A DNA stretch of 64,000 nucleotides from Candidatus Moanibacter sp. (lineage in GTDB: Bacteria; Verrucomicrobiota; Verrucomicrobiia; Opitutales; UBA2987), in the NCBI GenBank assembly GCA_965215885.1, contig CBDCEW010000100.1, positions 1 to 64,000 on the forward strand. The letters are read 5' to 3'. Position 1 is the stretch's first letter; every line of letters starts with the position of its first letter. This document shows, one piece after another, positions 15,001 through 24,000 of this stretch. The position numbers are program-made.

Positions 15001-18000
15001 GATTCGGTGCAGAGATCGAATGCAGCCAGACTGCTCCTCTGAAAAGTGTGAAAAGTGCCGGTTATGCAACCCGCTGAGAAGGGTGACCCTAACCCGGAAA
15101 TTCGTGAGAAAATCGGGCTAATCTCGTACAAAAAAGGCGGGCAGCTAATCCCAAAAAGCTACCCGCCAGAGATTTCTACCTAATATATCTCCTGAATATT
15201 ACCCCTAAATATTCGAAAGAATAGAAATCAATATATTAAACCCTAACTTTATAGATTGGATATTGATGAAAACGTTCAAGAAAAAATATTTAAAGTTCCT
15301 CAAGTGGAGGGATAAGAGCCTTTCGGATCGGTCAGGTGTTTAGTTTGAACCCTGTTCTACCGAGACTTCCTTCACTTCAAGAACGAATTCGAGTACTTTG
15401 TGGGAAAGGAATTGAACCTGTACAAAAAAAGGCGGGTAGCCTACCCCAAAACTACCCGCCATAGATATTTTTTGTCTGTTACCCCAAAATTTCCCATTTA
15501 AGGGACTAATTCATGATTGCGGTAGCATTGTTTCACAAATTGCGATGAAAGGCAAGAGTACTCTTCTTCACCCTCCAATTTTAACGGCCTTTTTACGAGA
15601 TAGGAATCTGTCTGTCTCAGGTTAGGACAGCTATCAGCCTGTCGGCAAAATCCGACAGGCTGATAGCGCGCTTATTCGTAACTGGGAAAGAAAAGAGGCG
15701 GGCAGCCTACCCCAAAGCTGCCCGCCACCACTCGTATTCTACTTCTGCAAACTTTGTTACCCCAAACTTGCCAAAAAATCAATTTGGTGCCCGTCTGTAG
15801 AATGCTTGCCTATTAGATACTAGTCGGACTATTACCTGATTCCTTTCGCCTTTTTTCTAAGATTTGGATAATTTCAGGGATGATTTTGGGTTTCGTGGGG
15901 GCAAAAGTCCGGAGGCGTCGGTAATTCAGAATGCCGCCTGGAATCGCAATCCGATCGCGACAGCATTGCTTTCGCCGTCAAGGGGATCGAAAATGACCTG
16001 CAGGTCCGGTTGAAGCGTAATCCAGGGCGAGACCGGAATCTGATAGGTGATTTCGAGTATTCGTTCCGTCTTTCCGGTGGGACCTCCGGCGCCTGAAATG
16101 GAGTCGAGGAATTCGTCGCCAAATCGAGTAATGGAAAAAGCGATGCCGAAAAGGTCGGAATTTCGGCCCGGCAAAAGGCCGCTATAGGTGAACCCAAAAT
16201 CGCTGTAAAACCTCACCGTATTGCGCTCTTCGCGCGGACTGAATCCAATTCGAATAAATGAACCCAGCCCCTGATTGGGATCCGATTCCGAGAATAGTGC
16301 CTGATCCCCGACGAAATATAGGGAGGAGTTACCCTCAACCATTAAACCGGAGCCGAGGATCTCGAAATCTCCCGTATGGTAAAACCCGCCAATCTTATAC
16401 ACCCCCGGCATACCGTTAATTTCGATCTCCGAACCGGCTTCTAGAAAAAGCACATATCCACGGGCACCGCCCAGTCCGAACTCGAGACCGTCGTCGTTGA
16501 CCTCCTCTTCACCTGCGTCTCCACTGTAGATTCCAAATTGAAAATTGGCGTTCTCAGCTATCCTGAAGGAGCCCCATAGGCCGGGAGCTCCTAATGGAAA
16601 GATGGGCGCACCAATATTGCCGGATTCCGTGGGTAGCGGACCAAAGGCGCTGTTGATAAAGAGGCCGGCATTTTCGGAAACCATAAAGTCGTCATCGGCT
16701 GCGATCTGCCCGATTCGCATAGCGATCGCCCCATCCCTCCACTCCTTCTGCAACCACGCTTGAAACAGTCTCACAGTGTTGAAGGCAGCAATGTTGCTCA
16801 AAGCATTGAAATCGCCCACGAGGTGTTCGGAGGGATCATCTCCGAAGATCGCGAAGGCTCCGAGGTGAAGGCTTGTGCCTCGCCAGTTCGTGGATTCATC
16901 GAATTCGATGTCGACTCCGAAATCGATGAGCCCTTGCCATACCGACCCGGTCCGATTTCCTCCTTCGATGTTTGCCACGAATTCTCCGATTGAGACGCTG
17001 TAGGGCCGAATCCCGATAGAGTGAAGCCCATCCAAGCCGTTCGGCTCCGCAAGCAGGGAATCATGAGTCCTCCCGAATTCCTCGGCGCCGGCGTCGGCCA
17101 GCCACTGAGTTGTCAGGAACAGGCTGCCCAGCAGGAGCCTTCCTGCCGAGACACGAGCTTTCGATGCAACTTTCACGGTACGAATTCTTTGGAGCATTAC
17201 CGCACCCAGCGACGCACCCAGAAAGTAAGCTGATCGAGCAAGGTTACGACGATGATGATAACAAGCAGCAGGACGGCGACTTTTCCGTATTGAAAGCCCC
17301 GCACGTAGAGCTGGATATAGTAGCCGATGCCACCGGCTCCTACGAGGCCGAGTACCGCCGCGTCGCGGAAGTTCATCTCAAATCGGTAGACAGTGAAGGT
17401 CAGCACTTGAGGGACGCACTGAGGGAAAAGGCCGAATCGCAAGGTTTGGAGCCAGCTCGCTCCCGTCCCACCTACCGCGTTAATAATGCCTTCGTCTGCT
17501 GTCTCAAACTCCTCCGCATAGAACTTTGCCAGCATTCCGATGGAATGGAAGGCAATGGCGAGAGCTCCCGGGAAGGGCCCGAGTCCGACGGCGGCGACAA
17601 AGATTAGAGCCACAACGATGAGCGGAATCGATCGAATGAAGCCGAGGAGCCAGCGTACGGGCTGTGAGATCCATGTGGGAGTGACGTTGGAGGCGGCCAG
17701 AAAACCGAGGGGAAGGGAGACGATCACGGCCAGGAAGGTGCCGGCCAGCGTAATCATCATCGTCTCAATCGTGGAATTGATCACAAGAACCGTTACACTC
17801 CAATCCGGCGGCACGAGACGAGAAAAGAATTCGGCGAATCGCGGCGCCGCGCCGAGCAGGACACCCGGATCAAATTCTGCTCTATGCATTGACCAGGCGA
17901 CGAGTCCCAAAACGAACGCGCAAAAAGCGACCCGGGCCGAGGCTCTCCGATACCAACGATTGCGCAGGTGTGTCATGCGACGAATTGATTCAATCAGGCA

Positions 18001-21000: not shown

Positions 21001-24000
21001 CTCCGAGAACACGTTGAACCGTTCCCGGTCAGCCGCGACAGCAGCGTAGGTCAAAAAGCCGGGAGAACCCAGCGAACTGGTGAGTTCGAGCCACCATGCT
21101 CCCATCTCTCTGAAGGCAGTTGGATCGGTATACTTTACTTCATGTTCAAAACTCGACCAGATTTGCCTCGCTTCCTTGAGCGACGCCAGCGCTGATTTGT
21201 AATCGTTTAGAGCAGAGCCAGCCTCCTCGAGATGGGCAGTGACAAGGTCAGCCACCGCGCGCGTGGAATATTCAAACAGCCTTTTTGCGGCTCGCTTCCT
21301 TGCTTGAGGTCCCGGCGCTTCATCCTCAACTCTGAGGACGGAATCAAAAACTACAGCGGTGTCGGCCCTCAGCGCCTCCCTCTTCTTCGCATCCAGTTCC
21401 CCCATACCCGCGGCGATCCTTTCCACGTCCCTGACGGCAAGCTCCCAATCCACCGGGTTCAGATTCAATATGAAACTGAGCCGCCGATAGCTTTCTGCCA
21501 CAGGGTGATACTTTTCCGGAGGTACGATATGTGCACTTGCGGGAGGACTCAGCAGCCGCACGATAGCCAGCGTTCCCAGCGCGACTACCATTGAAGACCG
21601 GCTCAGTAACCGCCTCGCCACTCTTCTGCGTGCTCTCTTCGGGCCATACTTTCGCTGCTCTTTCATCCCGTTTTTTCTCATCCTCGAAATCTCTCCGCAC
21701 CCTACCCGGAAAGGCCTCCTCCTCCAGCCGTATTGGGTGTAGTATTATCTAATTCTTTTATATCGGTAACTTCATATTAGCCCGGTGAATTAAATTTAGC
21801 ATATGATACATTTAAGATACCTATCAACTATGCTAAGCTGTTCGTCAAGAGAAAAATCAACTAATTTTTATCCAGGAATCGTTGCATGGCCTTGAGGGTA
21901 GCATCCGAGGCATGGTGTTCGATACCTTCGGCATCCATGTTGGCGGCCTTCCTGGGTACTCCTAAAGCGAGGAGGAAATCCGTCACGATCCTATGTCTCT
22001 CTCGACTTTGACTCGCCAGCCTCCTGCCTCCCTCCGTAAGGAAAATTGACCGATAGGGTTCCGACCGAGCTAAGCCGGCATCCTTCAGCCGATTGATCGT
22101 CTTCGAAACGGTGACGTGTGAAACACCGAGAACTCGAGCGATGTCAACCGCGCGCGCTTCTCCCTTTTCTCTTATGAGATCGTCGATCAGCTCGACATAA
22201 TCCTCCGCCAATTCGCTCCGATTTCGGTGCCTGGAATGCACGTAGGCATTTGCGGAAGAGAGCTTCCGAAATTTCCTTTTGGTGGATGCTTTCATCGGTC
22301 TACGGCAAAATCCATCTATTAGGAATCTGGCGGACTCAGAATTCGTAGTCCCGGCAAGCCGGGATCGAAAACAGTTCGAAATTGCCCGACAAGCTGCCAG
22401 GCCCAATCAGGCGTCGCTTTTTGCTCCTTTTGAAATATGATAATTGCGCAAGTGTGATGGTATTTAAGGCGGATTGACCTTATAAGTACTCCAATTCGAG
22501 AATACGGTGATATATGGGGAAACGCCCAGATCGCCTTCTTTAGGAATGGGAGCACTACTTAGTATAAACTAAAAGATTCAAGCAAGGGTAAAGTTTAATC
22601 GCTTCGGGTTTAATTCCCCGAAGCTTGCTTCGTTTCTAATTCATAAAGTCTAATATCAAATGCCTCGGGGCTTGCCCCGAGGCGATGCTTTTGATTAGGA
22701 TTTATGAGAAGCTTAGGTGAGGAAACTCGATTGTGGGCATTCGGTTAGAAAAACACATATCCGTCTTTAGCCTGATTTGTTGTACCGGGTTGCCTTCTAC
22801 ATTCGGAGAGGTGGAGGCAAATTACGACGGGGTGGCGCCTGCTGGTGCAAAGACGGTCGTCCGGTCGACCTCAGGGGACAATACGGAAGGCGAAGTCACT
22901 GATAGTCCTCGGCAGCGGAGGAGAGTTCTCGATAAGAGAAATCCACTGGCCAGTGAGTACCAGGGACTGGGAGATATCGGATATATTGCATTGGCGGATG
23001 AAGACTCCGAGGGGGTGGACGCCCGGAATCGGATAAAGACCGGCGATTTATTCGAGGGTGAGAGGCGTGAAGTGAAGGGTGAGGTTTCCTATCAATACCA
23101 TGATCAATCAGGGAGTGGCGCCTGGCAGGGGGAGTTTTCCTACCGCCGGATCTTCGGGGAAAAGGAAAATTGGGCAGTTCTTTTTAAGGGGGCAAGAACA
23201 GGCGCGCATCAGCTCTTTGAAAAGAGTGATCTTCGGTGGCGATTGCGCGAATTTTGCGGCGAAACTTTCTTCCTGCTTGATCGGATTCGGCTCGGGCACT
23301 CTTCAATAACTACAGCGATCAATAAGTATGAGTTCGCATTGGAACATCGGCGGGGTGGGGCGCACCGCCTCTATCTCAGGAGTCAGTTTGAGAATCGGAA
23401 AGGATCCGATACCTATCTGCGCTTGCTCCACAGGATTGGCAGGGGAGAGATCGTTGCACTGGAATCGACAGTGGCGACGGTCCGTAATGCGGAAGCCGAA
23501 CGCACTTTGTGGGATTATGAAGAACGCCGTGATCGGGTTCGAGTTCTCGTCGGCGGCGAATCAAAGGGTGCGAAATCACGATTTGATTACAGCTACTACT
23601 TTTCGAAATGGAAGAGGGAACGAACCGGGATGATCAATCCCCTGTTTCGTCGAGAAGGAGTCGACTACAGTTACGTTCTCAATGATACCGCCTTTCCGAT
23701 CGTGTCAGTCGACAACGGAGGGGATCTCAGTGATTCCTCGAGTTTTTCCTTCGCGGAAACATCGAATCGGGACTCTGTAAGCGAGGACCACGACCACGTA
23801 GTGGAGATGAATTACGAGCGACGCTTTGCCATTGGAGACACCTCGGCTGAGCTGAAGTTGGGTGGGGTATTCCGTCGTAAGGAGCGTGTTAATGCAGAGA
23901 GGCGGATGGTCTTGGATGATTTCGACGGCGAGTTTACTTTCGAAGAGATGGCCGGTCCGGACCTGGGCCTGGTCGTTCAGGATACTTATCCGTTCGGGCC

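Follow-up and report, generated by a model that had tools for sequence, protein, structure and literature searches.

Why should a gene set labelled "cytochrome c peroxidase plus phosphonate transporter" lie behind a regulator of the MntR family? In this study, we examined this question in a window of 64,000 nucleotides (the whole stretch of DNA that was analysed), and the gene set looks like an undescribed Mn-scavenging system. The survey's finding was a six-gene operon running from mntR through cytochrome, binding protein, ATPase and permease to an OprB porin, and all six open reading frames were found in place on the minus strand. The features are as follows.

22555-22576, no strand: second, weak DtxR/MntR-like palindrome, upstream of mntR
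21861-22295, minus strand: mntR (ATG at 22295), short E. coli type, ligands equivalent to Asp8/Glu99/Glu102/His103 (Mn-type); PRK11050 (NCBIfam) 192.9 bits, cut-off 153
21827-21798: promoter-like sequence pattern overlapping the operator-like palindrome
21792-21813, no strand: MntR operator-like palindrome, 110 nt ahead of the cytochrome ORF
19702-21681, minus strand: exported di-heme cytochrome c, 659 aa
20695-20709, minus strand: heme motif 1 of the cytochrome, CxxCH, residues 325-329
20275-20289, minus strand: heme motif 2 of the cytochrome, CxxCH, residues 465-469
18802-19680, minus strand: binding protein of PhnD/PtxB fold with altered pocket, PF12974
17994-18857, minus strand: PhnC-like ABC ATPase, TIGR02315 227.8 bits, below the cut-off of 266.1
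17197-17976, minus strand: PhnE-like permease, TIGR01097 282.4 bits, above the cut-off of 216.7
15926-17197, minus strand: OprB-family porin, accessory and lineage-specific, PF04966

No riboswitch was matched in Rfam at gathering level across 14000-26000. In the RNA runs of one study, contigs match short stretches of four genes (mntR and those for cytochrome, binding protein and ATPase) at low depth, and are uninformative on expression level or regulation.

Both the family score and the ligand residues, read with the key given in PMC4805248, place the window regulator with the MntR proteins of E. coli type, and it is the single tblastn match to this protein in the source genome (G000). The regulators on roseobacter-type plasmids that carry the same cassette are likewise E. 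coli-type MntR. Among 46 distinct linked regulators, the Glu99/Cys102 position is Glu in 41, Cys in 3 and unread in 2, and in all three long regulators tested the Mn model NF047407 outscores the DtxR model NF053665. These regulators bear directly on an alternative that we regard as unlikely, namely that the same machine imports Fe or another trace metal, with a transferrin-like site holding Fe(III) that the cytochrome makes from Fe(II) and with DtxR-family control meaning Fe or mixed Mn/Fe sensing in many lineages. Long FeoA-bearing regulators, the three Cys-type regulators, two Fur-family neighbours and one FeoB neighbour agree with Fe, as do the hemes, which cost iron and fit Fe redox, and the combination of Tyr, His and Asp with an anion, by which transferrin binds Fe(III) (PMC9957567). 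However, the E. coli type of the window and plasmid regulators, the model scores of the long regulators, and the Nramp and TroA/MntC-type neighbours all point away from Fe.

The palindrome at 21792-21813 is the top-scoring of 6,359,635 positions in the source genome (25.2 bits, against 18.3 for the next) under a matrix trained without this window. It is of TAGC-N4-GCTA type, with the layout of the MntR box whose consensus is given in PMC1698941, and lies at a putative promoter position; the promoter-like match that overlaps it is not above chance (3 found, against 1.6±1.4). A palindrome was recovered de novo in 63 of 120 upstream regions as against 6 of 107 control regions. Of the remaining 57, 21 have a site of at least 12 bits, the threshold set for the general matrix, further up, mostly where mntR or a barrel gene heads the operon, and all four plasmid intergenic regions carry one (13.3-16.8 bits). 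When the operator pattern was searched in 10 genomes, 7 of 11 matches lay before the cytochrome; the other four, off the module, had no recognisable Mn or Fe gene nearby by eye. The survey had counted against its own proposal that a regulator gene occurs in under a third of loci. Such a gene was found in 23 of 80 GTDB loci (15 of 43 with long flanks) and 25 of 80 metagenome loci; because the palindrome also occurs where the regulator gene is not adjacent, this worry is largely answered. The weaker site at 22555-22576 scores 8.4 bits with the general matrix, under the threshold, and stronger sites (20.1 and 19.0 bits) occupy the same place upstream of mntR in the relatives L022 and L023, making autoregulation of mntR possible. 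The presence of a DtxR gene anywhere in the genome (45 of 50 module genomes) was discarded as evidence since 11 of 14 controls have one. At loci L041 and L074 a Fur-family gene lies upstream, and their genomes have no DtxR match.

The linkage of cytochrome and importer is nearly universal. Each of the 8 family genomes has the cytochrome, at 54-62% identity, reproducing the survey's count, whereas no match of full length came from the 52 remaining genomes of the order; the conserved order of cytochrome, binding protein, ATPase and permease, together with an MntR or DtxR gene, was seen in all 5 family regions that were read. Among 80 GTDB loci, 73 extend 1.2 kb or more downstream, and 69 of these have the binding protein; 65 extend 3.5 kb or more, and 62 of these have all three ABC genes, hence the four-gene core. 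The corresponding figures for 80 metagenome loci were 50 of 51 and 25 of 27. A few loci (L073, L089, L091, L095, L176) have a cytochrome without an importer downstream. The two CxxCH motifs, described earlier as invariant, are present in 120 of 120 cytochrome homologues. The OprB gene is present in this operon, yet as a part of the system it did not hold up, being found in only 6 of 160 loci by BLAST and one more by Pfam, with a PF13557 barrel motif in its stead in 31 of 160. On the roseobacter-type plasmids, all three regions with full coverage hold the complete four-gene core, which sits within metal-resistance islands, and cassette copies occur in cultured Phaeobacter, Roseovarius, Labrenzia and Tritonibacter. 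Across phyla the module is patchy, because the binding protein was found in none of 200 other genomes of a phylum sample, the single match (L188) being an ordinary STS-H PhnD. Three longer matches included no fusion of binding protein and cytochrome, which is weak evidence.

The model of the binding protein is confident (pLDDT 94.8), and its altered pocket has Tyr74, Tyr119, Ser149-151, Asp183 and His228. As the survey had found, its nearest relatives are PtxB, ArrX and PhnD, and the best fold matches are oxyanion binders (ArrX, Z 29.4; PtxB, 28.7). It passes TIGR01098, and scores 195.2 with TIGR03431, below the cut-off of 261.1. The STS-H motif of Te_PtxB consists of S130, T131, S132 and H160 (PMC5700983). 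In our alignments Asp takes the place of this His in 114 of 115 proteins (one gap), and Tyr does so in three plasmid proteins, in a register taken from ungapped ArrX and AioX alignments, HMMER having gapped the PtxB alignment at that spot. The clamp is SSS in 82 and DMS in 33 of the 115, and SES in the plasmid proteins. The capping Tyr208 of PtxB or Asp205 of E. coli PhnD is replaced by His228 (His in 113 of 115, two gaps), and the pocket tyrosines, Y55 and Y100 in PtxB, are kept as Tyr74 and Tyr119 in 115 of 115, with His in place of Tyr74 in the three plasmid proteins. After the PhnD family the next fold is transferrin (Z 22.3, rmsd 3.5, 253 aligned), and the whole profile matches transferrin-type proteins at E 1e-7 to 0.01. 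When the His228 segment was searched for a second-hinge His, 13 of 15 PDB matches were transferrin-family chains, aligned to lactoferrin 249-258 at His253, with weak E-values of 1.4-10. Lactoferrin His253 is an iron ligand (PMC5095980). The pocket is without the phosphonate/phosphite STS-H motif and has an invariant His that matches lactoferrin His253 at those weak E-values, and Tyr119 would by analogy be the hinge Tyr of a transferrin-type site, in which Asp63, Tyr95 and Tyr188 are the three ligands besides the His. By another analogy, Glu42-His228 may only be a latch, as Asp22-Tyr208 is in PtxB.

The same residues may suit a protonated oxyanion, in view of the Tyr74, Tyr119 and SSS clamp kept in the window protein and its clade. 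Import of an oxyanion (phosphate, phosphite, phosphonate, arsenite or selenite) or of a metal-phosphate complex, with the cytochrome oxidising or reducing the anion, would also agree with the nearest sequences and folds (PtxB, ArrX, AioX, PhnD), with a permease over the PhnE cut-off and with a binding protein over TIGR01098. We nevertheless consider it quite unlikely, as the STS-H His is replaced wherever that residue is present, the clamp is acidic in two clades, and MntR control would be left without a reason. Moreover, no C-P lyase, PtxD or arsenic gene was found in 88 flanking proteins scanned (from 395 candidates in 236 clusters), and the source genome, 90% complete, has no PhnJ match.

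The cytochrome consists of a signal peptide, a mature N-terminal His51, a helical domain (~60-240), a core of bCcP/MauG fold (~285-560) and a C-terminal four-helix bundle (~560-659) with conserved Glu/His (model pLDDT 81.6, pTM 0.69). The core matches BccP at Z 14.3 (rmsd 4.2, 247 aligned), the bundle matches b562-type bundles at Z ~12-13, and the N-terminal helical domain has no Atlas match above 0.79. With PF03150 above its cut-off and two CxxCH in a CCP_MauG fold, the earlier description as a di-heme cytochrome of the peroxidase fold stands. The inter-heme Trp93/94 position of bCcP/MauG is Arg385 and the distal Gln103 position Phe395, each in 160 of 160; distal Pro107 is Val399; and the second-heme ligand position (Met in bCcP, Tyr294 in MauG, Tyr in BthA) is Phe528 in 157 of 160, where another residue such as His481 may be the ligand. 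A possible counterpart of Glu113 is the invariant Glu403, although a weak, gap-free alignment leaves it two residues short of that position. Peroxide binding requires the distal Gln and Pro, and BthA also lacks the inter-heme Trp and is still functional (PMC6405878). As judged from these residues, the protein is without the MauG/CcP catalytic set, and "peroxidase" describes the fold only. With Arg in place of Trp93 and Phe in place of both Gln103 and Tyr294, a bis-Fe(IV) route looks unavailable.

Cytochrome and binding protein are predicted to form a specific complex, with an ipSAE of 0.73 against 0.00 for the best of three controls. Of 157 solved complexes 116 attained the pass mark, as did 2 of 215 mismatched pairs, a calibration only roughly valid with our own alignments. 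The runs agree on at least 87% of contacts, with partner pLDDT of at least 84. In the prediction the cytochrome docks beside the binding-protein cleft, and the confident interface includes Tyr74 of the binding protein and no heme-core residue. Divergence of the two proteins is correlated across 100 loci (Spearman 0.54, kin not being independent). Two further explanations are best weighed here. It may be that the cytochrome, like MauG or MbnH, builds a metal site by oxidising a residue, either in the binding protein or in a small carrier, and never touches the imported metal; MbnH reportedly modifies its partner MbnP. The fold (Z 13.4 each to MauG and to the copper-linked MauG-like protein 6e1c) and the predicted docking with Tyr74 in the interface would suit such maturation, which we hold to be very unlikely in view of the Trp93, Gln103 and Tyr294 replacements and of a heme core outside the predicted interface. 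Slightly less probable still is that the cytochrome is a peroxidase that detoxifies peroxide and shares no more than a transcript with a Mn importer, serving as a backup against oxidative stress under Mn shortage. This accords with fold, annotation and the few cytochromes lacking an importer, and is opposed by the near-universal linkage, the predicted specific docking, the correlated divergence and the lost peroxidase pocket residues.

Genes of metal handling lie near the module at several loci. An Nramp gene follows the permease in L085, and a PF01297 binding protein, a ZIP and a FeoB neighbour the module in L044, L027 and L030, respectively; around the plasmid copies lie CDF and P-type ATPase or ZIP genes. 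The source genome, 90% complete, has no strong Nramp match, and the PF01297 Mn/Zn binding protein is found in 0 of 9 genomes (source plus 8 of its family) against 14 of 17 others of the order. A general replacement of MntABC/MntH was rejected beyond the window's family, the 0 of 9 representing one clade; in other lineages, 31 of 50 genomes with the module also encode a PF01297 protein (Zn and Mn not separated) and 9 of 50 a strong Nramp.

Taken together, we place slightly better than even confidence in redox-coupled Mn import that is switched on by Mn shortage, in which we infer the substrate and the direction of the redox step. Operator, regulator ligands, pocket residues, predicted complex and metal-island context support the survey's view that this is not phosphonate uptake and that it is metal-regulated and probably redox-coupled; from its open choice between a metal (Mn/Fe) and an oxyanion we retain Mn as the favoured substrate over Fe or an oxyanion. 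By comparison with known MntRs, Mn-bound MntR on the palindrome would repress the operon, and Mn shortage would turn it on. The porin or barrel, as an accessory, would let the metal species in. The periplasmic di-heme protein is predicted to dock beside the cleft through its N-terminal helical domain, mature N-terminal His and C-terminal Glu/His bundle. It would alter the oxidation state of Mn and hand the metal over to a site of transferrin type, made up of Tyr, His and Asp with an anion clamp, from which the PhnC/PhnE-like ATPase and permease would, by homology, carry it inward. The proposed hand-over site is not universal, because plasmid-clade cytochromes lack His51 and Glu601/His605. As to the redox step, we tentatively suggest an oxidative trap, Mn(II) becoming tightly bound Mn(III), so that Mn would be selected from a large excess of Mg, Ca, Zn and Cd. 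That the cytochrome frees Mn(II) by reducing Mn(III) complexes is rather doubtful, and a mainly chaperoning role of the cytochrome more doubtful again.

All parts are known folds, and the novelty lies in the system. As in the survey, no paper describing it was found in a literature search with little coverage of subscription journals, and a transcriptome table may still mention it. The known bacterial Mn importers take up Mn(II) and are not known to use a redox step. That bacteria of many phyla import Mn by redox selection, the cytochrome oxidising Mn(II) and loading Mn(III) directly into a transferrin-like binding protein, is a tentative proposal. If true, it would define a new class of Mn importers that withstand competition from Zn and Cd, which would account for the copies on metal-resistance plasmids, and would make the binding protein a prokaryotic member of the PhnD fold with transferrin's metal ligands. 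If the predicted docking of a cytochrome onto the binding protein of an ABC importer is true, it would represent a novel transport architecture and give the bCcP/MauG fold a new role. The system would bear on the trace-Mn supply of marine and subsurface bacteria lacking known importers, the source genome's family being without the PF01297 importer, and its "phnCDE" genes would inflate counts of phosphonate use in metagenomes. Plasmid copies occur in culturable marine bacteria, and the system is therefore directly testable.

Among known systems, PhnCDE, PtxABC, HtxBCDE, AioX and ArrX share the binding-protein fold (Z 25-29), the ATPase and permease families and the gene order. Unlike them, the present system has Asp or Tyr for the STS-H His, His for the capping Tyr/Asp, MntR control, a di-heme partner in nearly all loci and no phosphorus-catabolism neighbours seen; it misses the PhnD and PhnC equivalog cut-offs and passes that of PhnE. 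With bCcP, MauG, BthA, MbnH and hydrazine synthase gamma (PF03150), the cytochrome shares two CxxCH, the core fold (Z 12.6-14.3) and Ca-site-like TPT and DxP motifs, but it has other residues at Trp93, Gln103, Pro107 and the Met/Tyr ligand position, and additional helical domains, which supply the face predicted for docking. The transferrin/lactoferrin lobe resembles the binding protein in fold, in the second-hinge His at His253, by analogy in the first-hinge Tyr, and in an anion clamp at a helix start; in contrast, the binding protein is a single lobe with 18% identity, and what we take to be the second Tyr and Asp positions of the transferrin site vary in it by clade. MntABC, SitABCD, TroABCD and MntH have in common with it the MntR/DtxR operator and regulator linkage, and in L044 and L085 a shared operon, whereas they employ a PF01297 binding protein or Nramp, rather than PF12974, and no redox partner. 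With redox-coupled iron uptake of the EfeUOB, Fet3/Ftr1 and FtrABCD type the system shares its logic, in that one metal-repressed operon joins a transporter with a binding protein and with a redox protein of the periplasm. EfeUOB is described as an Fe(II) importer in PMC7762939. Systems of this type have no protein family in common with the present operon, whose proteins gave no Pfam match to DyP peroxidase, imelysin-like binding protein or Ftr1 permease; they have an Ftr1-type permease and a DyP or multicopper oxidase where the present system has an ABC importer, a c-type di-heme protein and a Mn-type regulator.

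We show that the six genes which the survey's finding had assigned to one operon are all in place on the minus strand:

21861-22295, minus strand: mntR, regulator, above the NCBIfam equivalog cut-off
19702-21681, minus strand: di-heme cytochrome, separated from mntR by a 179-nt gap
18802-19680, minus strand: binding protein, PhnD model below the NCBIfam equivalog cut-off
17994-18857, minus strand: ATPase, PhnC model below the NCBIfam equivalog cut-off
17197-17976, minus strand: permease, above the NCBIfam equivalog cut-off
15926-17197, minus strand: OprB porin

It seems somewhat probable that the module formed by the cytochrome and the importer carries out redox-coupled or cytochrome-assisted manganese import. 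A TonB-dependent receptor gene (22733-25093, plus strand) is divergent from mntR, with no recurring neighbour role seen in related loci. Short palindromic repeats at 22594-22682, 14330-14435 and 25227-25296 have 60, 72 and 47 BLAST matches (>=50 nt) genome-wide; they are REP- or MITE-like, and RNA runs show them as loose-ended contigs.

The cytochrome occurs throughout the family, as had been reported (8 of 8 genomes, 54-62%), and no full-length match was found in the order's 52 other genomes. Among 8000 scored proteins, 734 match it at E<=1e-20. We sampled 80 GTDB and 80 metagenome loci, whose record titles name Acidobacteriota, Planctomycetota, Nitrospinota, Hydrogenedentota, Sumerlaeota, Verrucomicrobiota, Lentisphaeria, Oligoflexia and Deltaproteobacteria. 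Where the flank sufficed, the binding protein gene follows the cytochrome in 69/73 GTDB and 50/51 metagenome loci, and the complete ABC trio is present in 62/65 and 25/27, pooled counts that include L056, from a genome flagged unpublished, on which no claim depends by itself. The co-occurrence across many phyla holds. The exceptions are loci L073, L089, L091, L095 and L176, and among five Planctomycete genomes searched for the binding protein three had none, one a weak match and one a true copy at a contig start. The porin, though part of the operon here, is accessory overall (6/160 loci), the PF13557 barrel motif being commoner (31/160). In the family genome G006 the oprB homologue lies in two pieces about 1.8 kb apart (L206:2686-3003 and 4809-5777), probably through an insertion, which is consistent with a dispensable porin. 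A literature search for a system joining such a cytochrome to an ABC importer found no description of one.

Firstly, regulation points to a metal. A 22-nt palindrome was sought by EM in the DNA preceding the cytochrome gene, and the 5 best of 14 starts reached one motif; it scores at least 12 bits in 63 of 120 proximal regions vs 6 of 107 distal controls, the former figure being inflated by a matrix trained on the proximal set. Of the 57 regions lacking it, 21 carry a site further upstream, mostly where mntR or a barrel gene heads the operon, and scores are 4.4 or less in L089, L091-L094 and L176. The operator-like site between mntR and the cytochrome (21792-21813) ranks first in the 6.36-Mb genome (25.2 vs 18.3 bits for the next) with a matrix from 19 other loci, some of them close relatives, and its layout agrees with the MntR box in PMC1698941. 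The same paper describes as enigmatic the Mesorhizobium sp. BNC1 mntR, for which a site exists solely upstream of mntR itself; a divergent module copy in this organism would explain it. Three or more kinds of regulator are linked to the module (the short E. coli type, the B. subtilis type and a long FeoA-bearing form), placed upstream, divergent or downstream, a variety that suggests repeated recruitment. The residue corresponding to Glu99 of Mn-sensing MntR and Cys102 of DtxR (PMC4805248) is Glu in 41 of 46 distinct linked regulators and Cys in three; the same paper reports Mn binding by a Cys-bearing orthologue. A Fur-family gene takes the regulator's place in two loci. Import of iron or another metal by the module appears unlikely, and manganese would be the cargo.

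Other manganese importers were also surveyed. A PF01297 protein was found in none of the nine genomes comprising this one and its eight family members, which form one clade, vs 14 of 17 other genomes of the order; elsewhere 31 of 50 module genomes have one. Downstream of the permease, on the same strand, are Nramp in locus L085 and a PF01297 protein in L044.

The module also reaches cultured bacteria. Searching with tblastn, we found cytochrome matches on 44 plasmids at <60% identity, and a plasmid cytochrome as query gave near full-length matches in 43/54 records. Cultured carriers include Phaeobacter gallaeciensis (NZ_CP021049) and Labrenzia (NZ_CP011928). A divergent mntR adjoins the cytochrome in all four plasmid regions read, and binding protein, ATPase and phnE genes follow in three, the fourth record ending inside the binding protein gene. 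CDF, P-type ATPase, ZIP and copper-chaperone genes surround these copies. On NC_009957.1 (17446-17703) and nine other plasmids, from Dinoroseobacter shibae and relatives, the cytochrome is reduced to its first 86 residues, a shared truncation.

Secondly, the binding protein has lost the phosphonate signature. Its model is confident, with ArrX, PtxB and their kin as nearest folds, then transferrin. The PtxB-type pocket consists of two Tyr, the STS-H motif and a cap, according to PMC5700983. Both Tyr are kept, the STS-H His position is Asp183 in 114/115 sequences and Tyr in three plasmid proteins, the clamp reads SSS, DMS or SES, and His228 forms the cap. The pocket therefore does not match that of a phosphite/phosphonate binder, in line with the earlier view that this is not phosphonate uptake. 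Of 15 matches to a profile covering 24 columns of the His228 strand, 13 are transferrin-family chains; the profile aligns His228 with lactoferrin His253 at E-values that are weak alone and carry weight only together with whole-profile and fold matches. Lactoferrin His253 is a hinge iron ligand (PMC5095980). The altered pocket resembles a hard-metal site with an anion, and a protonated oxyanion may still be bound; we consider import of an oxyanion distinctly improbable. Asp183/Tyr and Gly/Asp92 may fall on transferrin Tyr188 and Asp63.

The genome has a second PhnD-fold ABC operon (G000:C92 ~43500-49500; L189:3523-9500), in whose binding protein Tyr replaces the STS-H His, while the Pro-Ser-His strand is the same. 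What we presume to be a Fur-box-like sequence lies upstream, and a siderophore/FecA-like TonB receptor follows. This binding protein occurs in 9/41 genomes, with the receptor adjacent here and in 1/7 other regions read. A second PhnD subfamily, transferrin-like and linked to iron, may be represented here.

The core of the cytochrome adopts the bCcP/MauG fold; near parts of both hemes its pLDDT lies in the 50s-60s. Trp93, Gln103, Pro107 and the Tyr294/Met position are replaced by Arg385, Phe395, Val399 and Phe528; PMC6405878 links the distal residues to peroxide binding. With these positions replaced, the cytochrome is not a canonical peroxidase or MauG. We consider a maturation enzyme very unlikely and a co-transcribed peroxidase highly improbable. 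The mature N-terminus is His-x-x-Pro in 121/144 loci, preceded by Ala or Gly in 119 of these. Glu559, 568, 570, 571 and 601 and His605 are conserved in the C-terminal bundle; His51 and His605 are absent from the plasmid clade and Planctomycete outliers. Database entry P0001, identical over its own length, has 629 aa, so that Met31 may be the true start (affecting 21591-21681), leaving a plain signal peptide before His51. Sister forms of the di-heme core (P0147, P0151, P0163, P0229, P0268; P0140-P0144 and similar) include some fused behind a beta-propeller-like region at the N-terminus, of which two are named from Ca. Wallbacteria, and others of ~430 aa without the N-terminal helical domain.

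Structure prediction supports binding of the cytochrome to the binding protein. The complex scored 0.73 vs 0.00 for the best of three controls, passing a mark reached by 116/157 solved complexes and 2/215 mismatched pairs, counts that are rough for custom alignments. Contact agreement between runs was at least 87% and partner pLDDT at least 84. The predicted interface comprises mature cytochrome residues 1-6, 112-165, 553-557 and 569, and on the other side Tyr74 and loops adjoining the clamp and Asp183. The interface leaves out the heme core. Conservation is 0.67 at interface residues vs 0.55 for the whole N-terminal domain. No solved complex of such a pair is known to us. If a redox step is assumed, its direction would tilt towards oxidative trapping, because no conserved electron donor was seen among module neighbours and the pocket is Tyr-rich.

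The binding protein shares its two Tyr with PtxB/PhnD but differs in the STS-H His and cap, and the cytochrome shares its core fold with bCcP/MauG. In logic the module is like EfeUOB, and it belongs to none of the known systems tested.
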